Source of the DNA: a virus
Strand: one strand, 5' to 3'
DNA length: 64,000 nucleotides
IMG/VR virus record: IMGVR_UViG_3300000233_000007
Span: 1-64,000 of that record
The notes beneath the pieces are model-generated. The model searched no databases. It was not told where the DNA came from and worked only from the letters and a program-made list of their open reading frames with translations. The translations under genes and the position numbers were made by a program. Below, in pieces: positions 1 through 52,600 of this stretch. Positions within the stretch are counted from its first letter, which is position 1, and each line of letters opens with the position of its first letter.

Positions 1-59
1 CTACAACTGGTGCAGCAGCATTAGACAATGCTACAACTGCAAACAAATCAACTTGGTAG
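1..59 (+). CDS. 3' end of a plus-strand gene entering from upstream; C-terminus ...TTGAAALDNATTANKSTW* identical to that of minus-strand ORF 114..857
   Basis: Frame 3 translation of 3..59 ends in TAG at 57-59. It is the mirror image of 114..172. Confidence 0.4.
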   Translation, partial: TTGAAALDNATTANKSTW

Positions 60-172
60 TAATCAAATAAATAAAAGAGAGTTAGAAATAACTCTCTTTT
101 ATTTATTTGATTACTACCAAGTTGATTTGTTTGCAGTTGTAGCATTGTCTAATGCTGCTGCACCAGTTGTAG
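1..172. repeat. Perfect inverted repeat (palindrome): arms 1..84 and 89..172, GAAA centre at 85-88, running to the window edge
   Basis: Reverse complement of 1..84 equals 89..172 exactly (checked base by base across 61..112 and 1..60 vs 113..172). It contains the stop codons and last ~19 codons of two convergent ORFs. Confidence 0.9.
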
Positions 173-857
173 CTCCAACTCCTTGTTGATTTGCTTTAGC
201 TGATTCCATGAAAGAAGAATTTCTATCAAAAGGATGCAAATTTCCTGCATCATCTTTATAATGTAAACCTTTTTCATCTCTAACTTCAACCCATTTTCCA
301 ACAGGAACAACAGAAGCATCAAGGAATCTACCACCTTTCATGTTTTTAGGTAATTCAGGATAAGTTCTATCTTGGTCTTCAGCAATTTCCCATTGATATT
401 CTAAAAAGACATCAACTGGTTTCTTTTGAAATTCTGCTGGTACTAAACCAGTAATTCTTCTTGCCCAATCAGAGAAACTTGATGCTGGAGTAGCAAAAGC
501 TGCATCAATTTGGTCTTGAGTTACACCTACTGCTTTTACTGCATGAGCAATAACAGCCATTTTCTGTTTCATATCATCAGAATACAATTCAGCATAACCT
601 TCTTGACCTGGTTCAATTAATACATTCTTTTTACCATATAGAGAACCTGTTGTTTCATACAATCTTCTTCTATATTCTCTTTCTCCAATTTGAACCCATA
701 CATCTACTGCATTTCCTGGTCCATTATCTTTACCTGCTGTGTCAGTAAATTCAATCTTGGTAATATTACCAAGATTTAATCCAAATTTACCACCACCTGA
801 TTTTCCTTTTAATGATTCATCTCCATCATTAACTGCTCCAAATACAAAATTACTCAT
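114..857 (-). CDS. Hypothetical protein (247 aa). GC-richer than its surroundings; possibly an ssDNA-binding or recombination-associated protein given the neighbouring Sak4-like ATPase
   Basis: Long ORF with Gly/Lys-rich N-terminus. Its C-terminal codons lie inside the palindrome. No motif I can name with certainty. Confidence 0.6.
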   Translation of the reverse strand: MSNFVFGAVNDGDESLKGKSGGGKFGLNLGNITKIEFTDTAGKDNGPGNAVDVWVQIGEREYRRRLYETTGSLYGKKNVLIEPGQEGYAELYSDDMKQKMAVIAHAVKAVGVTQDQIDAAFATPASSFSDWARRITGLVPAEFQKKPVDVFLEYQWEIAEDQDRTYPELPKNMKGGRFLDASVVPVGKWVEVRDEKGLHYKDDAGNLHPFDRNSSFMESAKANQQGVGATTGAAALDNATTANKSTW

Positions 858-922
858 ATTATATATTTTTTAAATTAAATTTGTTTAAGAAAACTCTTTT
901 AAAATAAAACTCTTGAATTTTT

Positions 923-1231
923 TTAGTTATTCCATGTAACTGCTTCACTATTTGAAGCTGTACCCTCTTCAGTAACTTGTTCAGATTCTTCTACTGAAGC
1001 TACTTCTGGTGCATCATTAGTTTCTTGATGAATATCTTCTTCAGAAATTTCATCTTTTACTAATACAAAAGCAGGTGCATGAAATTTTCTGATTTTCAAT
1101 CCTGCTGATTTTAATGCTGCACCCATTTGGGTTACTGGAATGTTGTAGAATTCTGCTAATTCTTTTTTCTTCATTCCATCATTAACTTGTTTAGTTAATG
1201 TTTCTACATTGATTTGAACTGGTTCTCTCAT
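923..1231 (-). CDS. Small HTH DNA-binding protein with an acidic C-terminal tail
   Basis: LTKQVNDGMKKKELAEFYNIPVTQMGAALKSAGL is helix-turn-helix-like. C-terminus is Glu/Asp-rich. Confidence 0.55.
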   Translation of the reverse strand: MREPVQINVETLTKQVNDGMKKKELAEFYNIPVTQMGAALKSAGLKIRKFHAPAFVLVKDEISEEDIHQETNDAPEVASVEESEQVTEEGTASNSEAVTWNN

Positions 1232-1256
1232 TTTTTAAAAAATTTTAAAATTTATA

Positions 1257-1976
1257 TTAATTATAATACTCGTTTACTTTTTCAACTACTAATCCTAAAT
1301 CATTTGGGATATATAATTGCTCAAACATTCCTGGTGCTGATTTTGATGGAAATTGTCCATCAAAATTAGTTACAAATTCTTTACTCACTTTTTTAGCTTG
1401 ATTATCATAAGATTGTTTACCATATAATACAATATCAAACTTTCCTTCAGGAGTAATATAATCTTGGGTCATTTTACCAACTGTCTTATATCTATAAGAA
1501 ACAGTATCACTACTACTATCTTTAAACTCTTCATAATGAGCCATCATAATAAAATTAACAGTATGACTACTTTCCATAGCTGTAAATATTTTATCCATAA
1601 ACTCACCAATTTGTTTAAAAACATCATAACCTTTTTTCATAGCATTTGCCATATAATAATCTTGCATAATATAATTACTATCATCAATAATTATATTTTT
1701 GATTTCTGGTCTATTACCAATAACATAAGTTATTGCTTTTGCCACATCAGCTCCATTATTACTAATAAATCTATTACCATTTTCTTTTGTTGGTGGTTGT
1801 AAAGGATTACAAATTTTGTAAATATTATTACTTCCTTTAAATGGTAATGGTTTACTTGTAGCACTAATAATAAAAGTTTCAGCAGGATTTAAACCTTTAA
1901 GTCCTAATTGTTCAGAACCACCAATACTGGTAGATTTACCAAATCCTGATGGTGCTAATACTAATATTTTTGCCAT
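1257..1976 (-). CDS. P-loop ATPase, AAA_24/Sak4-like (RecA-fold recombination ATPase)
   Basis: N-terminal Walker A ILVLAPSGFGKST and Walker B-like IIIDD. Size and layout are typical of the phage Sak4/AAA_24 family. Confidence 0.55.
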   Translation of the reverse strand: MAKILVLAPSGFGKSTSIGGSEQLGLKGLNPAETFIISATSKPLPFKGSNNIYKICNPLQPPTKENGNRFISNNGADVAKAITYVIGNRPEIKNIIIDDSNYIMQDYYMANAMKKGYDVFKQIGEFMDKIFTAMESSHTVNFIMMAHYEEFKDSSSDTVSYRYKTVGKMTQDYITPEGKFDIVLYGKQSYDNQAKKVSKEFVTNFDGQFPSKSAPGMFEQLYIPNDLGLVVEKVNEYYN

Positions 1977-1977
1977 A

Positions 1978-2760
1978 TTAATTAATAATTATAGGTGTTC
2001 TACCATCAGTAATAATAACTTTATTATTACTATTTCTGATAGCTTCTATCCATTGTTGTTGTAAAACTTCTTTAGTTAAACCTGAAGACTTCATTCTATT
2101 TGTTTCAGCATCAATTTTTGCTTTTTCCAAATACATTTTTGAAGTTTCTAATTCATTTTTAACTTTATTAGCTTGTTGAATAGCATTATTTCTTTCTTCA
2201 ATAGCATTAGCCATTGATTTAGGTGGTGTAAGACCTGAAGTTAATGTATTTAAAGTAAAGAATTTTTGATTAAATCTTTCTTTAAGTATTTGTTCAACAC
2301 TTTTTTCAAAAGTAGCAAGATTATTCATCAATGAATCAGTAGTATAATTTCTTGCTTCTTCTCTAAATACATCAGTTACTAATTTATTTAATACATTACC
2401 TTCTACATTATCAAGAAAACCATCTCCTGTACCTAAATGTTTATAATTTAATACAATATTTGGTCCTTTTGTTCTTGTAACTTGGTAAGTATAACTTGGG
2501 TCAATAGTAAACATACCTGCATCTTTAGCTGAAACTCTAACTGCATCTACATCAGCTTTTTGTTCAAACATAGGTACTTGATATAATTCACTTCCTGGTC
2601 CTAATGGTCCTTGAGCACCAGTAACAACTTTGAAAGATTCAATACCATTTCTACCATAATCTGTCATTAAAACACCTTCATAATTTGGTTCTGGTCTATT
2701 ACAAGATACAGATACAATTGCTAAAATAATAGCAACAACTAATAATTTAATTCTTTTCAT
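1978..2760 (-). CDS. Lipoprotein (signal peptide plus lipobox Cys); possibly an SPFH/band-7-like fold
   Basis: MKRIKLLVVAIILAIVSVSC N-terminus. C-terminal coiled-coil segment. Confidence 0.55.
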   Translation of the reverse strand: MKRIKLLVVAIILAIVSVSCNRPEPNYEGVLMTDYGRNGIESFKVVTGAQGPLGPGSELYQVPMFEQKADVDAVRVSAKDAGMFTIDPSYTYQVTRTKGPNIVLNYKHLGTGDGFLDNVEGNVLNKLVTDVFREEARNYTTDSLMNNLATFEKSVEQILKERFNQKFFTLNTLTSGLTPPKSMANAIEERNNAIQQANKVKNELETSKMYLEKAKIDAETNRMKSSGLTKEVLQQQWIEAIRNSNNKVIITDGRTPIIIN

Positions 2761-2947
2761 CTTTTTTTATTTTAAAAAATTTAACATAAGGAAAACTGAT
2801 TAATAATACTAAATGTAATAACATTATTATAAACCATAAAAATGGTATAGAACTTCTAAAGAAAGATAATGTTATAGTTAACATTAATACATTAAGTAAT
2901 AAAAATAACAATACTTTGAATATAAGAGTTCTCATATTATTGTTCAT
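2747..2947 (-). CDS. Small membrane protein (2 predicted TM helices)
   Basis: 66 aa, very hydrophobic. Start and stop overlap the neighbouring genes by a few nt. Confidence 0.4.
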   Translation of the reverse strand: MNNNMRTLIFKVLLFLLLNVLMLTITLSFFRSSIPFLWFIIMLLHLVLLISFPYVKFFKIKKDEKN

Positions 2948-3479
2948 TTGAAATTACTAACCAATCTTCTGCTAACAAATCAGGATTTGTAGGAGTATAA
3001 GGAGTAACATATCCTAAATCAGTTTTTAATGCAATATAACCAGAGTAAGGAACTTCTTCTCCAAATTCTTCTCTTGCTACATTAGTTCTTGCTGGATATA
3101 CACCAGGAGCAACATAATACAAGTATCTACTTTTACCTTGAATAACCCAAGATTTTCTTGTAACCTTGTAACCTTCTTTTAATGCTTCTAAAGCATCACT
3201 AAAATCATTTAATACACTTTCTCCACATCTTTCACATGTATCAGGATTACCTGAACATTGTGCAATGTCTTCAATGTTTTCTTCTGATTTTTTAAATAAC
3301 TCTTCTTCAGGAGTATTTTCTACTGTATCAACAATCTCTTCTTGTTCAAGTGATTTTAATAAAGCAGTTGAAAGTAGCAAACCTAAAAATGGATTTTTCA
3401 TTCCAATTTCTTTAATGAAATTTGGATTCACATCTTTAATGTCAATTTCTTGACCATTTTGAATAACTCTTACTTGCAT
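2937..3479 (-). CDS. Hypothetical protein; the C-terminal half has a W/P/D...DW pattern reminiscent of the DUF2829 family
   Basis: ORF 180 aa. CxxC-containing middle segment CSGNPDTCERCGES. Confidence 0.5.
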   Translation of the reverse strand: MQVRVIQNGQEIDIKDVNPNFIKEIGMKNPFLGLLLSTALLKSLEQEEIVDTVENTPEEELFKKSEENIEDIAQCSGNPDTCERCGESVLNDFSDALEALKEGYKVTRKSWVIQGKSRYLYYVAPGVYPARTNVAREEFGEEVPYSGYIALKTDLGYVTPYTPTNPDLLAEDWLVISNEQ

Positions 3480-3482
3480 AAG

Positions 3483-3760
3483 TTAATTTTTAATATTAAT
3501 TTGTCTAAAACTCTTTAAATTTCCAAGCATATTTGCTCTGAAATGTTGTGGAAAAATACAATGTCTTGATTCTACAAGATGTATTGTTCTCATATTAGGA
3601 AATATAGGATTATTTTTACTGTCTTTTATAGATAAACCAAAATGTTTAGTTAATTTATATCTTTCATCATTTGGATTAAATATTGTAAATACATAATCAG
3701 CATCTTCTGCTAAATTCTCTTTTATTATCACAGTTGTTCTTTTAATCAACTGTTTCTATA
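3483..3760 (-). CDS. Replicative DnaB-family helicase, exon 3 (C-terminal part; boundary approximate)
   Basis: ...LAEDADYVFTIFNPNDERY matches the DnaB C-terminal motif EQDADVVMFLYRDEYY. The reading frame opens only 12 codons upstream of the listed ATG, directly after an in-frame stop. Confidence 0.55.
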
Positions 3761-4627
3761 TATTTCTATATAGGATGGACTATATCATCATCTCTATTGA
3801 GATGTTGGGTACTCTTGTCAGTATTATATTCTACTATTAAAGTAGTTTCAACCATTAGTCTCTGAACCTTCACACTTTGTTAAAGGTGTGCTTGGCTGCT
3901 GATTACCTTGCATTTCTGTTTAGGCTTCCCAGCAATTCACCCAATTCCTTTACAACATCACTATTGTAAGGGGCTTATTGAATAATTATTTTCTATTATC
4001 TCTTTTAAATTTACTAAAATAAAATCCTTTTATAGATTTTACATTCATATTGTAATTATCAAACCTATTAATATGATTAGAAATTGAAGTTTTAGAAACA
4101 TTTAACTCTTCAGAAGCAAATTTTACTGATTTATACTCTTTATAAAAAGTATTATCACTATTATAACAATAAATAGTATTATAAAAATTTGTTTTATTTT
4201 CTTCTTTATTAAAATATTCTGTTATTTTTCTTTTCCTAACCATTTCATTATTAACATTAATATTTTTAATTAAGTTTCCTGGTCCAGCATCTACACCATT
4301 TACTAAACTATGTTTAATAAAATGTTTTTCAACTAATTTTTTCTCATAAATATGAGATTCTTCCCAAGAACAATTTAAAATTGTTAATAATTTAATTTTT
4401 GGTCCGATACCATTTTTTAATAAACTTCTTATCCAATTCTCTTTATGAGAATTTGAATAATTATTTTTTGATTTACAAATATGTTGTGAAAGTCTTTTTT
4501 CAAGACTACTTTTTGTTCTTCCAATATACCTTATTTCACAATTATAAGGATTATATAAGCAGTAAATTTTTATTTTCATAATCAATTTTTATATGACTAC
4601 AAAGATAAGTAAAAAATTTCTATTTTC
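3761..4627 (-). mobile_element. Putative group I intron 2 in the helicase gene, carrying GIY-YIG HEG 3986..4585 (boundaries approximate)
   Basis: Non-coding 3750..3985 separates helicase motif H4 (..SDDIKDTG) from ..LAEDAD. It shares 12-14-mers (tctctgaacctt at 3859, cttggctgctgatt at 3891) and a near-identical 3' end with the polymerase intron. Confidence 0.5.
3986..4585 (-). CDS. GIY-YIG homing endonuclease
   Basis: IYCLYNPYNCEIRYIGRT...LEKRLSQH...N: canonical GIY-YIG layout with the Arg and His, then a basic C-terminal DNA-binding half. Confidence 0.7.
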   Translation of the reverse strand: MIMKIKIYCLYNPYNCEIRYIGRTKSSLEKRLSQHICKSKNNYSNSHKENWIRSLLKNGIGPKIKLLTILNCSWEESHIYEKKLVEKHFIKHSLVNGVDAGPGNLIKNINVNNEMVRKRKITEYFNKEENKTNFYNTIYCYNSDNTFYKEYKSVKFASEELNVSKTSISNHINRFDNYNMNVKSIKGFYFSKFKRDNRK

Positions 4628-5402
4628 CAAACCTGTATCTTTAATATCATCAGAAGTAGGATATAATTCATCTTTAGCATGTCTTATTCTATCTACATCA
4701 GTCATACCTCTATTTGTATGTATAATAGGTACAAATGTATAACCACACCAATTTCTTAATTCTACCATATATTCAACCATTTTATCAACAGTTTGTTTCA
4801 TCTGCCAACCTCTCTCATTGATTAGTTTTCTTAAATGGTCCATTATTATGATAGTATATTTTTCTGGATGGTCTGATACATATCCACCTATTCTTGATAC
4901 AACACCTGATTGATAACTAACAAATCTTCCTGATTTTTTAGCATGTTCTTTAAGAAATTTATAAATTCCTGTTGGATTATCTTTTTGTTCAATAAATTTA
5001 ATTAAACCTTTTTTCAATAATTCACCATTTTGAGCATATTCTCCAAATAAAGGAATAATTCTGTTTTCATAAACAACTTTTAATGCTTCTTGAACACTTT
5101 CTTTAACTCTTATAATATTTCCATTATCATCTTGTAATCTACCTCTTAAATAATCAGGAGATAAATCAATAATATTATTTGTAATACCACCAGAAGTATA
5201 AGTAATACCTTCATCTAACTGTATTTTTTCCATACCAAAATCATGGAATAGAAAATAAGCAGCAAAATCAAATTCTTTACTTATTCTATCTAATTCAAAA
5301 GAAAAATAAATCCATTCAACAGGTATATTATTCTGTACTGCATATAGAAAAGGTTGTATTACAAAAGCATAATCTACAAATGTACTCTTACCCAAGAGTT
5401 GT
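4628..5402 (-). CDS. Replicative DnaB-family helicase, exon 2 (RecA-like core; boundaries approximate)
   Basis: Begins ..LLGKSTFVDYAF (second half of Walker A). IIIMDHLRKL is the H3-like motif. ...VPIIHTNRGMTDVDR...SDDIKDTG is the DnaB arginine-finger region. The ORF-track M is a TTG, and an in-frame stop lies 2 codons upstream. Confidence 0.7.
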
Positions 5403-6238
5403 TATCTTAAAGGCTCTTTATCCTTTAATTCTGCAATTTCATTTGTTATAGTTGCAGTTCAGACTATATCTTCTACTCTTTGAGTAGTGCTGATTTCTTG
5501 CACATATTATATTCTCTTTTACAGAGTTTCAATGTGTAGTCGTTTGGCATTTACTAATATATTATTATTAGATTTAGCACAGGATTGTCCACTTCTGGAG
5601 TTTCCCTGTTTAACAGCATTTTACAAGACCAGTTTATATGAGAATATATAACCATTCATTTGTTTGTATTTACCATATAATACTCTTTGTATTCCACTTC
5701 TATCCATACCTAATTGTATAGATGCTTGTCTTATACTTGAATATTCATTAATAAAATTACCTTCTAAATCAGTTTGTATAATTGATTTTGAACCATTTGG
5801 TTTCATTCCTTCTTCAAAAAGTTTTAATCTACTAATAGACATTTTCTTTTTACTTTCTTCTGAAGGAGTATTATTAATTACATCTCTTGTTATATTATAA
5901 ACAGGATTTAATTTATCAACAAAATATTGTTCTCTTTCTAATAAAGATTCTGTACAATATTCTAATACACCAAATTTAAAATTTTCAATACCATATTTAT
6001 TTACTGCTGATTGCAACAAATTATTAGGGTTTTTATTATGATTTAATAAACTAAAATGTTTTGTTTTTCTATTACCTAAATTCATAGAACTTCCAATATA
6101 CATTTCATTATTTACTAAATTCACAATTACATAAACACCTTCATTTTTAAAATTATATATTTCCATATCATTTATTTATTGCAAATATAAAAACTAATTT
6201 TTACATCCACAACAAAATGCACCATTTTCTTTAGCCTT
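5403..6238 (-). mobile_element. Putative group I intron 1 in the helicase gene, carrying GIY-YIG HEG 5621..6166 (boundaries approximate)
   Basis: It interrupts the Walker A box: exon 1 ends ..RIYGVAAAP, exon 2 starts LLGKSTF. DnaB has ..VAARPSMGKTAF. Non-coding structured segment 5403..5620. Confidence 0.55.
5621..6166 (-). CDS. GIY-YIG homing endonuclease
   Basis: GVYVIVNLVNNEMYIGSS...R...H...N motif set. Confidence 0.75.
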   Translation of the reverse strand: MEIYNFKNEGVYVIVNLVNNEMYIGSSMNLGNRKTKHFSLLNHNKNPNNLLQSAVNKYGIENFKFGVLEYCTESLLEREQYFVDKLNPVYNITRDVINNTPSEESKKKMSISRLKLFEEGMKPNGSKSIIQTDLEGNFINEYSSIRQASIQLGMDRSGIQRVLYGKYKQMNGYIFSYKLVL

Positions 6239-6376
6239 TGGTGCAGCAGCAACACCATAAATTCTACCTCTTTGTACTCCATTGATAGATTTAGAAACAT
6301 TAGCTAATCCATCACCCATAGGTAATCCTTTATTACTACCTTCCTGACCTTTTTTGAATTCTTCTATTAGATTCAT
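6239..6376 (-). CDS. Replicative DnaB-family helicase, exon 1 (no N-terminal DnaB domain)
   Basis: GLPMGDGLANVSKSINGVQRGRIYGVAAAP matches DnaB GLPTGFxDLDxLTGGLQPGDLIIVAARP. Downstream residues to the stop at 6194 look intronic. Confidence 0.6.
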
Positions 6377-6927
6377 TATTGCATAGTATTAGTTATAGCT
6401 GTTCTACCTTGTTCTTGTTCAATACTTAATTTGTATTTTTCAATCCAATCAAGTAAATCACTTGTTTTAGTAGCACCATCACCTTTTTCAATAAAATAAT
6501 GTGGAAATCTAATATAGTCTGGGTCTGTATTAAGAAGATACATTCTTGTAGCACCTAATACATCTTCTTTTCTTATATCAGGATTTTTAGCAAATAATTT
6601 TTTCATTCTTGCAGTAGCTTCTCTCACTTTTCCACCTCTACTTGAATTATGTTCTTTAAATGCTTCACAAAAATGAGTTTTAACCCAATCAAAAGCAGTT
6701 TGTTGTCCTTCAAATAATGGAATATTCCATTTATAAGAAGTTACATCACCATTTTTACTTATCTTTTCAGCTTCATAAATATTAGTAATATTCATTCTTT
6801 TTTTAAAATCATCAGGAACATAACTTGGATTATAACCATAGAATAAAGATATTAAATAACATATTCCATCATCTTTCTGAATTCTAAATTCAGTTAAGAT
6901 TTCTAAAATGTCTTCATTTATATTCAT
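6376..6927 (-). CDS. Hypothetical protein, probably replication-associated by position
   Basis: 183-aa ORF. Stop overlaps the helicase start (ATGCAATAATG). Confidence 0.5.
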   Translation of the reverse strand: MNINEDILEILTEFRIQKDDGICYLISLFYGYNPSYVPDDFKKRMNITNIYEAEKISKNGDVTSYKWNIPLFEGQQTAFDWVKTHFCEAFKEHNSSRGGKVREATARMKKLFAKNPDIRKEDVLGATRMYLLNTDPDYIRFPHYFIEKGDGATKTSDLLDWIEKYKLSIEQEQGRTAITNTMQ

Positions 6928-7691
6928 AGTTTTTGTTTTACTAATTCATTTAACTGATAATTTAACTCATGTTCATTATCTATATCAATTTCTGTTTGAT
7001 TTATACAATTTCTAACATCATTAATAGATAAACAAGGTTTATTTAATAAAACATATTCTTCAGCTTTTTCTTTTGTTGAAAAATACTTTCTATCTACACC
7101 ATTACCAGTATGAGTTTGTGAAGCTCTATTTACTTTATGTATTTCACTATTAGTATTTTTTAATGCTCCATAATCATAAACCCAATAATCATCACCTTCA
7201 GAAATATTTACACCATCTTCAGTTTTAAATAAAAAAGAAGTATGTCTAATTGTATTTAAAGGCATAGTTGTACCAGATTTAGCTTGACAAATAATCTTTT
7301 CACCAGGATAAAAATATGTTATTTCTTGAATAGCATAATTAGTCAATTCATCTGTTAAAGAATCTTGAACTTTATCACCAATAGTAAAAACTTTTCCATC
7401 AGATAATCTTTCAACTGAATAAATTGTAACACCATGAGTATTTAATAAAGCTGTAATATACTCTTCACCATGTCCAGTCATATTAGATAATCTACCATCA
7501 TGTTGTTTTAAAATTATTATTTTATAATTCTTTTCAACAACTTCTTCCCAATATTCAGGATAACCTTTTGGTTGAAACCAATTATGATTCCAATAATGAG
7601 CATAATCTTTTTGCATAGTAGGTTTTGATATATAACCTATTTCTGGACTATTTTCAAAAGGTAATTTTTTAATTAATTTGAACTTTTTCAT
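6924..7691 (-). CDS. Hypothetical protein
   Basis: 255-aa ORF overlapping both neighbours by 4 nt. No motif I can name. Confidence 0.5.
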   Translation of the reverse strand: MKKFKLIKKLPFENSPEIGYISKPTMQKDYAHYWNHNWFQPKGYPEYWEEVVEKNYKIIILKQHDGRLSNMTGHGEEYITALLNTHGVTIYSVERLSDGKVFTIGDKVQDSLTDELTNYAIQEITYFYPGEKIICQAKSGTTMPLNTIRHTSFLFKTEDGVNISEGDDYWVYDYGALKNTNSEIHKVNRASQTHTGNGVDRKYFSTKEKAEEYVLLNKPCLSINDVRNCINQTEIDIDNEHELNYQLNELVKQKL

Positions 7692-8800
7692 AATTTAATG
7701 TTTTTAAATCTTATATATTCAACTTTGCTTTTATCAAAATTTTGCAATGCAGATTCAACCCATTTTTCATCTTGAGTTCCAATTAAACATAATACCCAGA
7801 TAGTTGCTTTATAATTAGGTTGGTCCAATAATGTTCTTGCTACTTTTTGAGAAGTTAATCCATTTTTATCTGAATCAGCTTGAACCATAAATAAATGGTC
7901 AATTTCTTTATAAGTAGTACCAACTCCACCAGCATTTACCATAGCAATTTCATCAATTTCACCAGAAATAAATTTATTTAGATATTTATCATCAGTTTTA
8001 CTATGAAAAACATTACTACATAAATACTCTGCTTGTTTAATACCAGAAGAAAATATTAACTTTCTTCCTTGTAAATTATCAATAAGATATTTTGCTGCTT
8101 TAGTTTTTGAATCACTATCATAAACTGACCTCATTCTTGCAAGAATTCTAAATTGTGCATCTTTTCTTTTTTGAAAAATAGCTTTTTGTGCTGAACTACT
8201 TAACCATTTATATTGTTCTTCTTCTGAAGTCATAAATGGTTTATCTTTAGTACCAGCTTTTACAGTTTTTTCTCTACTCATATCAATCTCAATTACTTTT
8301 ATAGTATAATTGGCTAATAAACCAATATCTACTGCTTCATTAATTGATAATTCATATAATATAGGTAGTTTTAAAGACTTGTAAAGGTCTTTTTTAGTTT
8401 CATGTTTAGTTTGAGTTCCTGTCATACTAATAATGTAATCAGCAGTAAGTTTTCCATTGATTATATTAGATAAATTGTTTTCAGTAGCAAATTGTTCTTC
8501 ATCTAAAATAATAAGTTCATAATGACCTTTTATTTTATTTAAAGAAGTCCATGTTACTGTCTTCAATTTATTTAAGAACTTTTTAGCTTTCCAAGTATTA
8601 AATTCTTCTGGTATATCTTCTTCAGCTAATTTAGCTAAAGGAGTTACCCAAAGAATTGATTTTGGATTGTTCTTTTTAATAATATCAATAACAAGTTTAC
8701 TTTTACCTACTCTGGGTGCTAATAACAATCTACCATGAGGTTTCAAATCTAAAGAATCAACTATTTCCTTTTGGATTTTACTCTTTTCTTTGTTTGTCAT
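7688..8800 (-). CDS. SF2 DEAD/DEAH-like ATPase/helicase (UvsW/SNF2-like)
   Basis: Motif I LLLAPRVGKSKL, motif II LILDEEQ, motif III ISMTGTQ. Confidence 0.6.
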   Translation of the reverse strand: MTNKEKSKIQKEIVDSLDLKPHGRLLLAPRVGKSKLVIDIIKKNNPKSILWVTPLAKLAEEDIPEEFNTWKAKKFLNKLKTVTWTSLNKIKGHYELIILDEEQFATENNLSNIINGKLTADYIISMTGTQTKHETKKDLYKSLKLPILYELSINEAVDIGLLANYTIKVIEIDMSREKTVKAGTKDKPFMTSEEEQYKWLSSSAQKAIFQKRKDAQFRILARMRSVYDSDSKTKAAKYLIDNLQGRKLIFSSGIKQAEYLCSNVFHSKTDDKYLNKFISGEIDEIAMVNAGGVGTTYKEIDHLFMVQADSDKNGLTSQKVARTLLDQPNYKATIWVLCLIGTQDEKWVESALQNFDKSKVEYIRFKNIKL

Positions 8801-9030
8801 GCTTTAAATTCTTTTAAATATTTTATGACTACAATGATATACTCTATTTCAGCATTAAAAGACTTATTAAAAGTTTCTTTTATATCTTTAAAAATATTAC
8901 TTTCTTTATCAGTAATAATATTTAAAGGAATTTGAGAATCTTCTAATAAATTATTAATAACAAAATTAGAAGAAGGAGTTGCTTTACCTTCAACTTTTGT
9001 AATTATTATAGGATAACAAGTAAAACTCAT
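8797..9030 (-). CDS. Small hypothetical protein
   Basis: 77-aa ORF in operon context with 4-nt overlaps. Confidence 0.4.
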   Translation of the reverse strand: MSFTCYPIIITKVEGKATPSSNFVINNLLEDSQIPLNIITDKESNIFKDIKETFNKSFNAEIEYIIVVIKYLKEFKA

Positions 9031-9665
9031 ATTTTATGTTCTATTAAATTAATAACCTTGTAAACTTCATCAATATAATATTGATAATCAATTTTAGATT
9101 TTATTTCATCAACAGTAGTTAATTCCATATCATTAACAACAGTACATAAATAACCTGCTTCAATATTAGTATTTCTTGGTTTGATTAAAGATTCTTTATA
9201 TTGCTCATAAGTTCCTAAATAACCATTTTTTACTTCTTTATTAAAATCAGTAATCATTTTTTTAGTTTCTTTTTGAGCTAATGGTGGCATTTCTTTAATT
9301 AAAGTAACACCTGTACCATTTTGAATAAATGTTTTTGAATCTTTATCAAATTGTTGATAACCAGAAACATAATACCTAACAATTCTTTGAACTTCTTCTT
9401 GTGATATTATATTACCATTTTCATCAAGTAATCTTGCATATAATTTATCAGTTCTATTGATTTTAGTTCTTTTAAAGAAATCATAAATATCATTATGATT
9501 CATAATAAAATCTTTAACTGGTATATTATTAACAAAATATGCTTCTAATGCTTTTGGTACTATTAACATAGAGAAATTTTTATGAAGTTCTAATTCTCCT
9601 GGTTCTACTTTATATATAAAAGCAGCACCTTTTCTTTTAGCACTTCCATTAGTCTTAACAGCAAT
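9027..9665 (-). CDS. Family-B DNA polymerase, exon 2 (C-terminal thumb/KxY region; 5' boundary approximate)
   Basis: The frame stays open upstream of the listed ATG to an in-frame stop at ~9675: ...KTNGSAKRKGAAFIYKVEPGELELHKNFSMLIVPKAL.... The KxY-like segment follows motif C of exon 1. Confidence 0.6.
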   Translation of the reverse strand: MAVKTNGSAKRKGAAFIYKVEPGELELHKNFSMLIVPKALEAYFVNNIPVKDFIMNHNDIYDFFKRTKINRTDKLYARLLDENGNIISQEEVQRIVRYYVSGYQQFDKDSKTFIQNGTGVTLIKEMPPLAQKETKKMITDFNKEVKNGYLGTYEQYKESLIKPRNTNIEAGYLCTVVNDMELTTVDEIKSKIDYQYYIDEVYKVINLIEHKI

Positions 9666-10660
9666 GTAATTGTTTCACTTTATCTATATACTTTCATATA
9701 TAGGTGGACTATATCTTTAATTACTTGGTATTTTCTCAATATAATAACCTTTAAATAATACTTTATTAGATTTCTTTTTAAACATAGTTGCAATTACATT
9801 TTGTAATTTCATTTTTTGCAACTCATTATAAAATATATTTTTTATAAATGTCATTCTATTATCATACAAATTATAAGAGTATTTAGTTAAATTTTTAGAC
9901 ATTATTTCAGATTGTTGTTCTTTTCTTGAATGATTATCTTTCCAAGATTTTCTTAATTTTTCTGAATGATTATCTCTCAATCCTTCTTTCCATTCCTTTT
10001 TTAATCTATTTGATATTTTTTCAGAAGTTTTTGGATGAACTATCATATTTGTACTACTATCTTTTCTTAAATTATAACCTTTAGAAGAATCAGTTGTATT
10101 ATAATAATCTATCCAATATAATTCTCTATTTGAAATTAAATTCAAATTCTCAATATATTCAATAACAAAAAATTCAAAATTATCAATACTGTATTTGTTA
10201 ATTGAATTTAAAAAATATGAATTTATATGATTGAAATTTTGTCTATTTATTTCATAAATATATTGATGACATCTATTATAAAAACATTTAGTTTTTCCAA
10301 CATAAAGTTTATTATTTTTTAGGTTTCTTATACCATAAATACCTGATTTGTTCTTTAATAATATATTAGGATTCATTGTGAAATTATTTCAACAAAGATA
10401 CATAATTATTATAACTTATCAAACAAACTTTAATAACTATCTTGCTTTTCCCAGTAATAAATTACCAGTACTCCTTTTCAGGATAGTCTCTGAACCTTAC
10501 CCATAATATTTAAGTTATATTTTAGGGTCTTGGCTGCTGATTGTCCATTCATTCATCTCTTTAATTTTCAAGCATTCACACTCACCTTTTCAAGTCATGT
10601 TGTAGCTTAAAGAGCTTTAGGATATTCCAGCAATTAACAAGATTAAGATGCAAACTTTCA
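9666..10660 (-). mobile_element. Putative group I intron in the DNA polymerase gene, carrying GIY-YIG HEG 9717..10376 (boundaries approximate)
   Basis: Non-coding 10377..10616 holds tctctgaacctt (10487) and cttggctgctgatt (10529), shared with helicase intron 2. The 3' end (9676..9716) is near-identical to 3751..3790. Confidence 0.5.
9717..10376 (-). CDS. GIY-YIG homing endonuclease
   Basis: SGIYGIRNLKNNKLYVGKT...NR..QY...N. Confidence 0.75.
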   Translation of the reverse strand: MNPNILLKNKSGIYGIRNLKNNKLYVGKTKCFYNRCHQYIYEINRQNFNHINSYFLNSINKYSIDNFEFFVIEYIENLNLISNRELYWIDYYNTTDSSKGYNLRKDSSTNMIVHPKTSEKISNRLKKEWKEGLRDNHSEKLRKSWKDNHSRKEQQSEIMSKNLTKYSYNLYDNRMTFIKNIFYNELQKMKLQNVIATMFKKKSNKVLFKGYYIEKIPSN

Positions 10661-12137
10661 CATCTTTGATAATCATTTTGGAATACATTACATCTTCAAG
10701 TTCTAAACCAGTAAGAGTTTCCCATCTTCTGCATATAGATTTCATCTGCTCTACATAATTCTTATGAACTCTAACAGTCATACCATCAGTATTAATTTGT
10801 ATCATAGTACAATCAGGAATTTCTTCCATAAATCTTTCTGATAACATACATAATAATAATTGTCCATTAACTGTTGTTTTCATAGTGTAAGCAGGGTCAT
10901 ATAATGCTGAATATTCAGAATTACTTTTACCATAAGAACCATTTAATGCTAATTTCAATGCTAAATTTTCTGCTGGATGTGTTTTCTTATTATAACCTTG
11001 TCTTTCTATGTATATACTTTCATATATATCACAAAATTCTATACCTAAATGTTCAGGATAAAATTTATTTTTAATAGCAAGATTAGGATAATAAGAAGCT
11101 ACATCTACATCCCAAATCTCATATTCATCATCACTAACATAAATACCAGGACTTACAGAACCATGTATTCCACCAACACCAAAATCATATTGAAATCCTT
11201 TGTAAATAACATTTAATGTCTGTTGTTTACCATTTTTCTTTTCAACATAATAATGAGGTTCTAATGAAATTAATTCATCAAATGGAATCTCACTAAATAC
11301 ACCTTTAGTTTCAGTAATTGTTCTTGATTTAAACCATTCAAGTATTTTCTGAAATGGTTCAGTAGTAAATCTAACATAAGGGAATATTACATCATTAAGA
11401 TTAATAAATTCTCTTTTGGTATTTTTGATTTTCTTTCTAACCCCTCTGTCAGTTTCATACTTATCATAAACAACATCTTCTCCTAAATCAGTAATAATTT
11501 TACTTATCAATATATATTCTCCAATTTTAGTTGAATTAAAATTAGTAAAGTCTATTTTGTATTGTGGACTTAATTTTTCTCTTAATTCAATTTCTGGTAA
11601 TGTTTCAACATATACTAATTCAGTAGCATCTACATCATTATCACAATAATCAATTACATTTTGTATTTGTTCATTTGATAATATTGTTCCTGGTTCATAA
11701 GGGAGTTCTCTTATATTCTGCAATCTCAAGTTAAATTGTAACAATTTCAATGAAGTCATTTTTGCTTTATTGTCATAATGATTTATTTTAAACAAATCAA
11801 TTTGCTTTTTAATATAATCATATTCTTTAAAATAAACTTTCTTACCTTTAATAATACTTGTTGAATAATTAAATAATTGACTACAAAAATCTCTTCCTCT
11901 TAATGTCCATAGTTTCATTATAGCATGATGTAATACTGGATAATCATAGTATAAACTATTAAATCCAACCATTTCTTCTACTTCATACTTTAACCATAAA
12001 GCAATATCATTTCTATCATCACCTAATGGACTAACTTGAAATCTTCTTCTTTCTCCTGTTTCACAATGTTTAGCACAAATTAAAAATAGATTAGGATAAA
12101 TTTCTATATCATACACCCATCTTTTTTCATTATTCAT
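10661..12137 (-). CDS. Family-B DNA polymerase (phi29-like compact type), exon 1: exonuclease plus palm motifs A-C
   Basis: Exo I YDIEIY near the N-terminus. Exo II YCDNDVDAT. Motif A DVASYYPN (DxxSLYPS). Motif B KLALNGSYGKSN (KxxxNSxYG). Motif C INTDGMTV (DTDS). The last ~20 residues before the stop look intronic. Confidence 0.75.
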
Positions 12138-12720
12138 AATATTCTAATTTAATGTTTTTTGAAAAATATTTACTTTTCTGTTTTCTTTCTTTACCTATAT
12201 AATAATTAAATAATTTTGGAGTAATTTTAAAAAAATCTGCTGCTTCAACACATGATTCAAATATTTTAATTAATTTGTTATCAATATAATATGCAATTTT
12301 TTTTAATTTAGCTTTTCTAAATTCAATTATATTTTCAGGAACTTTACCTTTAAGTGATTTTGATATTTTTAATTTATGTTCATTAGATAATTTCTTAAAA
12401 CTTCTATTAACACTATCAGAAGCATCTTTAACATTATAAAGTTCTGTTTTTTGTATAGATATATAATATTTTTCTTTTTCTGTTAAATTTTCTTTTACAC
12501 AATACTCTAATATAGAAAAAGAAAAATTTTCTTTTCCATATTTATTATAAGAATGTTGTAAATGAGAATTAGAATGTTTATTATGATTTAATTCAAATCT
12601 ATGATAAATTCCTCTTCTGTAAACATTTTTACTTTGCCCAACATAAACTTTATTATTTAAAAGATTAGTAATAAGATATATACCTGATTTTTCTTGTATT
12701 TGTTTTTTTGATATTTTCAT
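12130..12720 (-). CDS. GIY-YIG homing endonuclease, free-standing; its stop overlaps the polymerase start
   Basis: SGIYLITNLLNNKVYVGQS...YRRGIYH...N. Confidence 0.75.
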   Translation of the reverse strand: MKISKKQIQEKSGIYLITNLLNNKVYVGQSKNVYRRGIYHRFELNHNKHSNSHLQHSYNKYGKENFSFSILEYCVKENLTEKEKYYISIQKTELYNVKDASDSVNRSFKKLSNEHKLKISKSLKGKVPENIIEFRKAKLKKIAYYIDNKLIKIFESCVEAADFFKITPKLFNYYIGKERKQKSKYFSKNIKLEYYE

Positions 12721-39152: not shown

Positions 39153-40124
39153 ATGTCAGAATTACAATATACAACAATTGACAGAATTCTTTCTAAATTT
39201 CATAGAGATTTAAGAGGAACATATATAAATGAATCTGATGTTGTTGAATGGATTGGTGAAGCATTAGAATTTCTAAAAGTTCAACAAATCCAAGACCAAG
39301 CTATTGCTTTTATTGAAGTTAATAATCATCATGCTGAAATACCAGAAGGATTTCAAATGGTATTACAAATTGCAAGAAATAATAAATGGGTAAAAGAAGA
39401 AAAAGATAAATGTACTCCTTGTAATACAATAATTAATATTCAACAACCTCAAGAAGATTGTGAAGAATGTAATAGTTGTAATGATGTATTAGTAACTGAT
39501 TGTAATGGATTTATAATAGAAGATAATGAAATTGTAGATTATAAACCACAATTTGATTTAAAATTTGAATATCAATATTGGAAAAATAGTGATTATTATA
39601 AAAGAAATTATTCACCAGTTAGATTAAGTAATCATTCTTTATTCAATTCTATTGTTTGTAAAGAAAAAATAGATGAATGTTTAGGATGTACAGATGAATA
39701 TACAATAGTTGGTACAACAGAAAAAAGATTAAGATTTTCATTTCAAGATGGTCAAATAGCAATGGCATATTTAAAAAATGCTATTGATGAAACAACAGGT
39801 TATCCTTTAGTTCCAGATGAAGTATCATACATAACTGCAATTACTTATTACATACAATGGAAAATTGCACAAATGTTTGATTGGAGTGGTAGAGAAGGAT
39901 TTGCAAGAATATCTCAAGATAAAGAAAAACTTTGGTTGAAGTATGCAAGACAAGCTAAAAATAAAGCTAAAATGCCAAAATCAATTGATGATTTTCAAGA
40001 TTTATTAGAACAAACACATTACTTAATACCAAATCATAAAAAATATTATGGTTATTTTGGTAATTTAGGTAAATCACAACAATTAAGATTTAACTTAAAT
40101 ATAGAAGCAAATTATGGAAATTAA
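39153..40124 (+). CDS. Cys-rich structural protein
   Basis: CTPCNTII...DCEECNSCND cluster. 323 aa. Confidence 0.5.
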   Translation: MSELQYTTIDRILSKFHRDLRGTYINESDVVEWIGEALEFLKVQQIQDQAIAFIEVNNHHAEIPEGFQMVLQIARNNKWVKEEKDKCTPCNTIINIQQPQEDCEECNSCNDVLVTDCNGFIIEDNEIVDYKPQFDLKFEYQYWKNSDYYKRNYSPVRLSNHSLFNSIVCKEKIDECLGCTDEYTIVGTTEKRLRFSFQDGQIAMAYLKNAIDETTGYPLVPDEVSYITAITYYIQWKIAQMFDWSGREGFARISQDKEKLWLKYARQAKNKAKMPKSIDDFQDLLEQTHYLIPNHKKYYGYFGNLGKSQQLRFNLNIEANYGN

Positions 40125-43100
40125 CAATAATAATATTTCTGAATTAAATACAGGTTTACATACAGATAATTCACCACAAAATCAACCTAAAGGTACTTAT
40201 AGATTTGGTTTAAATACTGTGAATGAAACTGATAGAGGAGATGAATTTTTTAGAAGTAATGAAGAAAGTAATGAAAGATGTTATTCATTAACTCCTGGTT
40301 TTGTACCTATTGGTAAATGTTATATTGGTGGCAATGAAACTATTTTATTTTCAGTATCACAAGATAATATTATTTCAGAAATAGGTATATTAAAAAACAA
40401 TTGTAATTATGAAGTGCATGTTAATGACTTATCTTCTGCACCAGAACATAAATTAGGATTTACTATTGAACATCAAATTCAAGCTACTTATAGATTAAGA
40501 AGAGGTTGTGAAAGAACAATTTATTGGACTGATGATAATAGAAAACCAAGATATTATAATTTTGATAAACCAGCAGATTTTAAAAATGATGATGGTACAT
40601 GGGCAGGTAAAAAGTTTAATTTATTCAAAGAATACAATGAAATACCTGAATTTAAAACTGTTGAAGTATTAGATTCTGGTGGTGTACTTGAACCAGGAAG
40701 TTATAATATTGCTATTCAGTATTTAGATGAAGGTTTAAATCCTTCTGAATGGATTATAACTTCTCCTACTATTAATATTTATAATGACTTATCAACAGAA
40801 GATTTTCTTGATATTCAAGGTAGTATAAATTCTGATACAGATTATATTGATTTTCCTGTAACAACTAAATCTATTAAAGTAGAATTTGATAATTTAGATG
40901 AAAGTTATGCTTTTTATAGACTTGCCTTTATGGAAGCTACTAATGGAACTGGTAATATTAGTGATGTAAAATATACTGATACTATACCAACTTCTAAAGA
41001 TTTCTTTATATATACAGGTGAAAATGCAGCAACTACTGGTACACAAGAAGAAATATTATTTTTTAATGAAGTAATATATAAAGCTAATTCAATTGAACAA
41101 ATTGAAAATAGATTAATATTAGTTAATACAGAAGGTAAACAAACTAACTTTTGTAAACTTCAAAAATATGCAAGTAGAATAAAAGCTGATGTTGTTACAA
41201 AAAAAGTATTAACTAATCAATTAGATGACCCAAGAAATACTAAAAATCCTACTGTACATTTTGGAGATATGACCACAGGTGGTACAGGTTATATGCCAGG
41301 TGAAATATATTCATTTGGTATTGTTTATGTATTTGAAGATGGTTCATTAAGTCCAGTATTTCATATACCAGGAAAGAATCCTAATGTAGATGCTTCTATG
41401 GTATTTTCTCCAGGTGATAATACTTATCCTATGGATAATAATAATGAAAGTGTTAATAACAGATATATTGATAATGATAATTGTAATAATAATGATTATT
41501 GGGGATTAGATTCAGAAGGTGTACCTCTTCAAGGTAAACCAGTTAGACATCATAGATTTCCATATAGAAGTAAATTAGGATTACCATTAGCAAAAGAAGA
41601 AACTGCTTTAGGTACAGGAGAACAAACTTTTCCATATTACAGAATACAATTGACAGGTACAGGTACTATAACATTACCAGTAACATGTAGTCAAGATGAA
41701 ATAGATGCAGGTACTTGTACACCAGTATTAGCACCACCATTTCAAGTAAGAGTTACTTATACTGTTGATGGTGTTCAAGAAACTATGGTTGTAAATATTG
41801 ACCCAAGTGTATTATCAAATCCAGTTAATATTTTAGAATTTTCTAATTTATATACTTCAAATAATATAGTTATTATTAAAATTGAAGAAGCAGATGAAAA
41901 TGGAGTAGTTACAGATGTAACTTCAAGTGTTTCACCTAAAGGTATTACTTATGTAGCTTTACCTGTTAATTCAACAATAACTACTGAAGGTAGAGTATAT
42001 TCAACTGAAATATTAGGTATTAAATTTAGTGGTGTAGATTTACCTTCATTAAATGATACTGATGGAGAAAAAATAGTTGGTTACTATATAGTTAGAAATG
42101 AAAGAGTTGAAAATGAAAAAACAATTTTAGATAGTGCTGTATTAGTACCAACATTAAGTAATAATAAATATATAGCTCATGGTTTATTAGCACCTCAAGT
42201 TGCTGATACAAATAGATTAAGTAAAACATTATTTGGTGTTATACATCCTGAACATAAATTTAATGGAAGAGAATATAACAATTTTGATTATATAAAACAA
42301 GAAGGTAACTTTAATGTTGATAAAAGAAATTTAAGTAAAACTATGTATAATGATGTACTTGATGGTTCATCTTATGATGGTGATGCACATAAAGGTGGTA
42401 ATGATGATGGTCATGGAGCTGATGGTCAACCAAGTACAAGAAGTTATGATGGTTGGTCATTAACATTGATTATTAGAGATAATTACTTATCATATAAAAT
42501 TAAAACATTATTTAATATTGTTAAAGCAAATGTAAAAGAAGTATTTTATTTAAAAGCATTGCAAAGTAGAGATATTAATGATGGTGCAAATGCAGCTTAT
42601 AATATTACTGGAGATAATAGAATAGGAATGATTCAATTTAAAAATGATGAAGTAAATCCTGTTATAAACAATTTACCTTATGTATTATTAGGAAGAAATA
42701 TTCTTGATTCATATTCTAATTTTAGAACATTACCTTATTATAAGGATAGTTTAAATTTAGAAAAATTTGATGCAAATGGAGTTGGTGTATCTACTATATT
42801 TAATGGAGATACTTATGTATGTCCTATGAGATATACTAATAGTTTATTTTGGGATAATAGAGTAGCTGAAAGAGCTGGTAGAACTTCTGTATGGAATTAC
42901 ATTATTGGTGGTATATTAATTGTTGTAGGTGCTATTTTAACTTTCTTTACAGCAGGTGCATCTACATTAATTATTGGAGCAGGTATTGCTATTATTGGTG
43001 GTGGTGCTTTATTTATAGCTTCTGGTATTGAAAGAGATGCTTTAGTAAGAGCATATAATGAAGAATATAGAAGAGGATTAAGAGAAACAGCTTTAGATGA

Positions 43101-49640: not shown

Positions 49641-52600
49641 ATGGCTAAACAAGTTAGATTAGGAAAAGGTAATTTAGGAGCAAAACAAGAAGTAGATAAA
49701 GAAATTATTAAACTTCAAAAACAACAATTATCTAATAAAGAATATCAAGATTTCTTATTAGAATTTCCTTCATTAAAAGCTCAAGAGAAACAAGAAGAAG
49801 ACCAAAATCTTGCAGTTCTAAATCAATTAGAAAAAGAGCAAGAAATTTCAGAAGTGGTTAAACAAAATCAATCACAAGAGAAATGGTATTCTGGTATTAC
49901 AAATTTTTTTGAATCTTTTAGTGATAGAGGAGATATAGCTGATTTATGGTATAATAAAGAAGATGGTAAATGGTATGAAAAACAATCAGATTTATTTGGT
50001 ACTTATGATAAAGAAAATTTAAAAGAAGTTCCTTATGATAAAGTTCAATCATTAATAGAAGCTCAAGCAAAAAAAATGAGTAAATCTGGTGGTTATCAAA
50101 CTGGTATTGCCACAAATAATATTGTAGATAAAGTATTTGAAGATGGTGTATGGGGAACTGTATATGGTCTTGGTAGTTTAATAACAAGAGGTGTTACTGG
50201 TAATTGGGATGATGTTAATGATTCTCAAATGGAATCACTATGGAATAGAACTAAATATTATGGTGCTAATGTATTAGATGTATTTAATGATGCTATAACA
50301 AGTGCTGATGCTGGTTTAGAAGATGAAGCTAATAATCCTGATATTCCTTTTTCATTCTTAATGAGTAAACAAGAACAAGATATTAGAGATGCAAAATATA
50401 ATAAAGAATATAAACAAATTCAACAAAAAGGACAAAAAGCATTAGAAGTTAGATTTGAAGAAGAAAAGAAAAGAAGAGCTTCTGGTGAAAAACTTTTAAT
50501 TGATAAATTATATGATTGGTCAGAAGTTGAAAAAGATAATGATTGGTTTGCACAACAACAAAAATTAAAACAAACAATTTCTGAAAGAGCTATGGAGCTT
50601 GAAGGAAGAAAGAAAAAATCATTTACAAATGTAAAAGATACTATAAATCCTGGTACTTTTAAATATGTTGATGATGCTAAAAAAATAAACATGGAATTAC
50701 CATTAGAAAAAACTGGTGAAGGTAATTCTAAAAGTATATGGGATGTACAAAAATTAATTATTGATGCTTCTGGTAAACCTGTATTAGATGAAACAGGTCA
50801 ACCAATGTATGCAGATAAATATTCATTTACAGAAAAAATTGCAAATTCTAATTGGGATGTTCTTGGTGATGCTTATTATTTACAAGATGATTTAGCTCAA
50901 GGAGTTGGTACTGCTGCTGGTTTTATAGTAGGTGGTAAAGGTACTAATGCAATGTTAAATACAGTAGGAAAAGGTATTGGTAAAACTGCTAATGTAGTTT
51001 CTAAAGGTTTAAATTTAGAAAACAAAGTATTTAATTATACTAATAAATTATTAAGTACAACTAATAAAGTAACACAACCATTAGGTAAAACTATTAATAC
51101 TATTGATAATACTGCATTTAATAAAACATTAAATATAGTAAATGATAAAGTATCAAAAGCAATAAGAACTACTATTCAATCATATTTAATGTCTAATACT
51201 GAATCTGAACAAATTGGAAGACAAGTTCAAAAACAAGTATTAGATGAACAAATAGATAAGTATGCTAAAATCAATATTCAAGATATTGCAAAAGATTTAA
51301 GTGAAAGTGGTAATTTTTCAAGTGATGCTTCTTTGTTTTTACAAGCACAAATGAAAGCAGAAACTATTAGAAAAGAATGGGCAGATAAAAATCCTGAACT
51401 TTTTAATGAAATATTATTACAATCTCAATTAGCACAAGAACAAGCAAGAGGTATTAATAACATAAACTTTATTAATAATATAACTTCAGCAGGTTTATTT
51501 GTTAAAGGTAAATCTTTTTCAAGAAATTTATTATCTAATCCTTTTTCTAAAGCAAATTTAATAAAAGGTGCATGGACTATATCAAGAGAGATGGTTCAAG
51601 AAGGTTTAATTGAAGAAGGTTTAATTAATGGGTTTGCAGAAAAAGCTGGTAAGCAAACTGGTAATATGAAATTCTATGATGTATCTGACTTCTTTAAAAA
51701 TGATGTTGGTTCATCTGAATTTGTTGAAAATGTTTTTGCTGGAGCAATACTTGGTGGTTTACAAACTGCTGGTACTAAAGGAGTTAATGTTATTAGTGAG
51801 TACAAACAATTTAAAGAACAAAAGAAAATTGTAGATGAGTTATCTAAAATTGGTTCTTTAGATACTAAAGAAAATATTAAAAAAGTAATTGAATATTCAT
51901 TAGACAAAGCTAATAATGAAGCTGTTGCTCAAAGAATGAATGAGTTATTAGCAGAAGGTAAAGAATCAAAAGCAAATGCTTTAGCTGATACTTTATTGTT
52001 AAACAAATCTGTAAGAGCTGCTACTTCAGGAACTACTGAAGTTTTGAATAAATCATTACAAGACTTAATGCAAAATAAAGAATTAAGTCCAGAAGATAAA
52101 CAAGAATTACAAAAAGCAATTGATTTTAATAATAAAATTGCAGATACTTTTGATGCTCATATTAAATATGCAAACAAAAAAGGTATTATTGAAAATAGAG
52201 GTAATAGAGAATTACTTGAAAATTATAAACAAGATTTAATATCTTCATTACCAATTCTTGAAAAAGAATATAATGAAGCATTAGAAAGACAAATTAGAAA
52301 AGAATTATCTTCTGAAAATTCTGATTATTCAAATACTAATTATTCAGAGATTTTTGAAAATAAAAAACAATCATCTAAATTAAATGATGACCATAGAGCA
52401 TCAGTAGAATTAAATACTGCTAAAAAACAATTAGAAGAATTACAAAATGTTCAAGATGAATTAGATGATAAATATGATTATATAATTTCTGATAAAGGTC
52501 AAAAAAAATATATTAAATTAATGAACAATATTAGAAAAAATAATATTGTTAGAGATGTTAATGATAAAAATGTAGATGAAGTAAAAGATAATTTAAGAGA

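Follow-up and report, generated by a model that had tools for sequence, protein, structure and literature searches.

Genomic context of the locus

The DNA analysed here (hereafter the window) is a stretch of 64,000 nt, covering positions 1 to 64,000 of the IMG/VR record IMGVR_UViG_3300000233_000007, and it belongs to a Crassvirales-like phage related to Flavobacteriia phages. Its replication module occupies the minus strand from position 1 to about 16.4 kb and comprises the gene of a phrog_15339 protein, a Sak4-like annealing protein, an SPFH/Band 7 lipoprotein, a Tad2-like protein, helicases and a DNA polymerase. The structural genes lie on the plus strand from about 20 kb onwards and include those for a Crass major capsid protein (PF23898, 8.7e-77), a large terminase (phrog_6681, 2.7e-175) and a portal protein (phrog_6547). 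Two giant ORFs are found on the plus strand 3' of this structural module, at 40114-46035 (1973 aa) and 49641-62786 (4381 aa). The closest phages in GenBank are the Flavobacterium FpV4 group, Cellulophaga phi17:2 and phi4:1, and Bacteroides crAss-like phages, all of which match the window over short stretches only, at 60-80% identity.

The first gene of the window, ORF 114..857, is complete and belongs to the replication module (Table 1). No Pfam or PDB sequence match was found for its product, which has a natural and conserved C-terminus (...KSTW). It is flanked by the gene for the Sak4-like annealing protein on one side and, in the true genome arrangement described below, by a DNA primase gene on the other, a position that suggests a role in replication or recombination. 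Between the stop codon of ORF 114..857 and the edge of the window lie a hairpin and a segment that mirrors the end of the gene.

Table 1 Features at the start of the window. L001 denotes Logan contig SRR407177_22653.
Feature	Position	Strand	Description
Probable fold-back (chimeric) segment	1..67	+	Exact mirror of 106-172; 100% complementary
Terminator-like hairpin	68..105	-	17-bp stem 68-84 / 89-105 (TAAATAAAAGAGAGTTA / TAACTCTCTTTTATTTA), 4-nt loop 85-88; L001 10753-10790
Probable template arm: true 3' end of ORF 114..857 plus 8 nt of 3' UTR	106..172	-	Identical to L001 10686-10752
Replication-module gene, complete, 247 aa	114..857	-	phrog_15339 (function unknown), PHROG match 4.3e-76

A perfect palindrome at the edge of the window

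A repeat search and a script both recovered the exact reverse-complement arms that the first-pass annotation had described at this edge, at positions 1-84 and 89-172 (84 nt each, 100% complementary), with the 4 nt GAAA between them. A perfect palindrome of 172 bases is far outside chance: the runner-up among perfect hairpins with loops of ≤8 nt in the whole 64 kb has a 13-bp stem. The palindrome touches position 1 of the window, which places its full length outside view. It is a local hairpin and not a distant pair of repeats, and no inverted terminal repeat was seen in the window, where the central 36-mer occurs once at ≤3 mismatches (0 expected in shuffles); the other genome end lies outside the window.

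The arm at 89-172 contains the stop codon of ORF 114..857 (positions 114-116, minus strand), its last 18 full codons and part of the 19th. The arms had previously been said to hold the stop codon and the last 19 codons; the former stands, and the latter count is reduced to 18 codons and a fraction. On the other side, the mirrored arm 1-84 translates on the plus strand as ...TTGAAALDNATTANKSTW, in mirror of the ORF 114..857 codons ...AALDNATTANKSTW, and the stretch 1..67 mirrors the final 18 codons of the gene together with its stop codon and the 8 nt of 3' UTR. What had been taken for a second, plus-strand ORF entering from upstream and converging on ORF 114..857 is thus a mirrored 59-nt copy of the 3' end of this one gene. 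Likewise, the proposed head-to-head duplication of part of a gene comes down to the mirror image of the same tail, with nothing to indicate a second gene.

An independent contig reads through the hairpin

A public, independently assembled contig of 26,882 bp (Logan contig SRR407177_22653, hereafter L001) encodes a 247-aa protein identical to the ORF 114..857 product, which enabled a base-by-base comparison of the two assemblies at this site. In BLASTN, L001 1..10794 corresponds to window 10857..65 with 99.95% identity over 10,794 nt, and the four mismatches in this entire 10.8-kb match are all accounted for by the four loop bases of the hairpin. The following 9.5 kb of L001 (10795..20320) has no BLASTN counterpart anywhere in the window. 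Aligned base by base, the window and L001 are identical across the stop codon and both arms of the 17-bp stem, and they part at the first base past the stem, where the window continues with TTTGATTACTACC (the reversed gene) and L001 with ATTTTGCATTTATG (the approach to, and start of, the primase gene). Written in the sense of the gene, L001 reads ...TGG TAG TAATCAAA TAAATAAAAGAGAGTTA GAAA TAACTCTCTTTTATTTA ATTTTGCATTT ATG (primase)..., whereas the window reads ...TGG TAG TAATCAAA TAAATAAAAGAGAGTTA TTTC TAACTCTCTTTTATTTA TTTGATTACTACCAAGTTG..., which is the gene running backwards. The loop of the window is therefore inverted relative to the long genuine arm (TTTC in gene sense, against GAAA in L001), and the two junctions can be told apart by short signatures, the fold-back junction being the stem followed by TTTGATTAC and the primase junction the stem followed by ATTTTGCAT.

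Beyond the hairpin, L001 continues on the same strand with the gene for a 347-aa DNA primase (phrog_12622, 8.2e-92), whose ATG lies 11 nt on, then with a gene for a UDG-family protein (PF03167) and about 7.8 kb more, the genes being co-directional. The inverted junction is missing from L001. For its proposals that the site is a hairpin end, a terminal duplication or a telomere-resolution site, the first-pass annotation had named in advance the finding that would tell against them, namely unique sequence flanking a short inverted repeat, and in L001 unique sequence indeed flanks an inverted repeat of 17 bp. Going by this alignment, the true inverted repeat measures 17 + 4 + 17 nt (window 68-105), with positions 1-67 and the inverted loop ascribed to the fold-back; at the place of window 1..67, L001 carries the unrelated sequence ATTTTGCATTTATG..., and we accordingly regard that segment of the window as foreign to the phage genome at that position. 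Searches with the 33-nt hairpin core returned no match in IMG/VR viral contigs, in JGI metagenome contigs or in GTDB genome contigs, and a literature search on how the SRR407177 library was prepared found no paper that mentions this accession.

The hairpin between two replication genes

The genuine hairpin begins 8 nt past the stop codon of ORF 114..857. A terminator scan of the L001 copy (10753-10790) reported 17 pairs, three of which are G-C, a 4-nt loop and the T-rich tail ATTTTGCATT, and the folded RNA was predicted at -20.9 kcal/mol (z = -5.7), with none of 200 shuffles as stable. A stable stem-loop and a T/U tract past a stop codon are the sequence features of an intrinsic terminator, and the element looks like either such a terminator or a transcript-stabilising hairpin after the phrog_15339 gene. 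It shares with intrinsic (Rho-independent) terminators the stable stem-loop, the T-rich stretch and an intergenic position 8 nt past a stop codon, but differs from them in its A+T-rich stem (three G-C pairs out of 17), in the co-directional genes on either side being only 57 nt apart and in its absence from phage FpV4, where the spacer at the homologous position has no comparable hairpin. A large bidirectional terminator between convergent genes was also considered and is ruled out by the co-directional orientation of the true neighbour.

Gene order in a cultured relative

The best DNA matches among GenBank phages are 60-80% identical and cover at most 27% of window 1-3000, and since no close relative is thus available among them, gene order is the only evidence that can be drawn from these phages. 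The complete genome of Flavobacterium phage FpV4 (88,308 bp, circular record) carries, on one strand, the homolog of ORF 114..857, then a toprim protein and then a uracil-DNA glycosylase, which matches the order in L001. The FpV4 homolog (ALN97169.1) is 52% identical to the ORF 114..857 product and ends in the same C-terminal KSTW, and the FpV4 toprim protein is 53% identical to the L001 primase (E = 1e-126). This shared order identifies the site as an internal spacer of a conserved co-directional cluster and not as a genome end or a meeting point of convergent genes. Together with the continuation of L001, it also implies that the true neighbour of ORF 114..857 is a co-directional primase gene that is absent from the window.

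Origin of the palindrome

In the light of these comparisons, the palindrome is very probably a fold-back (inverted) chimera that was seeded on the genuine hairpin, at what is most likely a contig end. This is the only one of the three origins put forward by the first-pass annotation that L001 and FpV4 support, the other two being a closed hairpin end or telomere-resolution site and a genuine inverted duplication at a genome terminus. From the data we infer both that the chimera originated in physical chimeric molecules, as opposed to a purely computational misjoin, and that position 1 coincides with the end of a contig. While the library was being prepared or amplified, a 3' end of DNA may have halted at the hairpin and then paired either with the upstream arm of its own strand, by snapping back, or with the complementary arm of a displaced strand. 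Once extended, this end would copy the gene tail in reverse and give rise to molecules, and hence reads, in which the gene tail is followed by the stem, the loop, the stem again and the gene tail reversed. Such chimeric reads would open a branch in the assembly graph at the hairpin, and the contig would have taken the chimeric branch for 84 nt. That it stops after a short mirrored stretch, and that the primase-UDG segment is missing, could both be explained by the fact that any further k-mers would be the reverse complement of sequence already used. The length of the arm was also considered as a possible trace of the assembler (k-1 for k = 85), and we make no claim on this point.

The breakpoint lies at the first base past the 17-bp stem, and thus at a short self-complementary sequence from which snap-back synthesis could be primed. 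No other perfect hairpin in the region has so long a stem, and the fold is very stable, which makes this the site most prone to snap-back. Inverted chimeras account for more than 85% of the rearrangements in multiple displacement amplification (MDA) and are primed by complementary stretches of 2-21 nt (Lasken & Stockwell 2007, PMC1855051), and ligation-based nanopore libraries also yield inverted-repeat chimeric reads (PMC13141652). The palindrome resembles these preparation chimeras in its inverted duplication, its short self-complementary junction, the absence of that junction from an independent assembly and its place at a sequence edge. Typical MDA chimeras have an intervening deletion and are primed over 2-21 nt, whereas here a 17-bp hairpin and a deletion-free snap-back would be involved, in a case known from contigs.

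A similar inverted duplication might instead have arisen at the 17-bp hairpin in vivo, in a real minority of rearranged genomes (snap-back defective genomes, or replication or recombination intermediates), which we consider unlikely. In its specific form, template switching would have taken place between the phrog_15339 and primase genes of a marine or aquatic Crassvirales-like phage, with the rearranged molecules existing alongside the normal genome, and to this version we give the same slim chance. A minority of real molecules would be expected to leave the same contig, a situation in which sequence alone does not separate them from a library artefact; that the junction lies at the foot of a stable hairpin fits template switching in vivo as well as in vitro, and public data contain the normal arrangement too, as a mixed population requires. 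However, nothing points positively to an origin in vivo, sample preparation commonly produces inverted chimeras where short sequences are complementary, as is well documented, a long perfect palindrome would be unstable in the cell, and just 84 nt of the mirrored arm are visible, at the edge of the sequence. The remark in the first-pass annotation that palindromes of this length are unstable in bacteria owing to SbcCD is right in general and becomes moot for a palindrome that the phage most probably does not carry. It is very unlikely that the assembler folded back through the hairpin by itself, in the absence of any chimeric read. The palindrome does lie at a sequence edge, where assemblers leave unresolved graph tips, but the genuine repeat has 17 nt per arm and, by the logic of the graph, a strand switch in a de Bruijn assembly would need a k-1 of ≤17. 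The usual final values of k in assembly are far above 17. Moreover, a loop that is inverted by reference to the long arm needs k-mers that are absent from genuine reads; genuine reads cannot supply the k-mers that join gene, stem and TTTC, which favours chimeric reads over computational error.

There is next to no likelihood that a linear phage has a covalently closed hairpin telomere or a site of telomere resolution here, or that the genome truly ends in an inverted duplication, although a long perfect palindrome at a sequence edge is what might first bring such structures to mind. The otherwise identical L001 reads through the site and continues for 9.5 kb beyond it, and in FpV4, with its circular record, the homologous site falls inside the conserved co-directional replication cluster; both observations contradict a hairpin end or telomere-resolution site, and they contradict a terminal duplication as well. 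The targets of protelomerases (TelN, TelK, ResT) are dyad-symmetric through their centre. The GAAA centre of the palindrome is not self-complementary, and dyad symmetry does not extend through it. The palindrome sequence is not repeated elsewhere in the window, and the phage carries a large terminase, a portal and a Crass capsid protein, which likewise speak against this reading. The protelomerase gene that had been suggested as a companion elsewhere in the genome was not found among the ten ORFs of 370-809 aa in the window that were searched with PHROGs and Pfam; these ten encode helicases, a DNA polymerase, a terminase, a portal, a capsid protein, an exonuclease-like protein and proteins of unknown function. 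The likeness to the hairpin telomeres of N15 (TelN), phiKO2 (TelK) and Borrelia (ResT) is thus limited to a long perfect palindrome at a sequence end and is superficial, whereas the scanned ORFs without a protelomerase, the non-palindromic centre and the internal location of the site in L001 and in relatives all set the present case apart.

Consequences for the phage genome

With the fold-back chimera as the preferred explanation, the real biology at this site is almost certainly that of an ordinary terminator-like hairpin between two replication genes, and the palindrome is almost certainly not a real feature. A perfect palindrome at a contig edge is easily misread as a hairpin telomere, an inverted terminal repeat or a gene duplication, and such artefacts can mislead calls of completeness or of genome termini for uncultured phages; the result is thus mainly one of quality control. 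For this record, positions 1 to 88 of the window (the fold-back stretch 1-67 and the inverted loop) are to be trimmed, and the contig is to be joined to the primase-UDG segment of the Logan contig.

Further features of the replication module

Several other features were observed on the minus strand of the replication module. The SPFH/Band 7 lipoprotein gene (1978-2760) has about 69-71% DNA identity to genes of the Cellulophaga phages phi17:2 and phi4:1 and of Leptolyngbya phage Lbo-JY46, and it is shared more widely than its neighbours. The 180-aa protein encoded at 2937..3479 contains a Tad2-like (Thoeris anti-defence 2) domain (PF11195, E = 1.2e-17) and may serve this Crassvirales-like phage as an anti-Thoeris sponge. 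At 3756-3993 lies a full-length group I intron (RF00028, 89 bits, E = 6e-22), which shares 8 nt with the 3' end of ORF 3986..4585 and is next to an endonuclease-like ORF; the ORFs around this intron, 4589..5395 and 3483..3749, may be two exons of one interrupted gene.

The DNA polymerase gene (9027-12137) is split. Its first part, 10617..12137, corresponds to residues 1 to about 490 of the FpV4 polymerase (55% identity) and its second part, 9030..9650, to residues 503-698 (52% identity). The insert between them, of roughly 1 kb, holds a GIY-YIG homing-endonuclease ORF (9717..10376) between two pieces of a group I intron (RF00028) at 10439-10644 (50.6 bits) and 9687-9719 (18.7 bits), and it looks like a group I intron bearing an endonuclease gene. 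Just upstream of the polymerase gene, ORF 12130..12720 is a further candidate homing endonuclease, being GIY-YIG-like by eye only, and has no similarity to the FpV4 polymerase. A candidate free-standing homing endonuclease is encoded by ORF 5621..6166, for which GIY-YIG and NUMOD/I-HmuI-like Pfam matches are on record for the identical Logan copy. The replication module of this phage appears to be unusually rich in homing-endonuclease elements.
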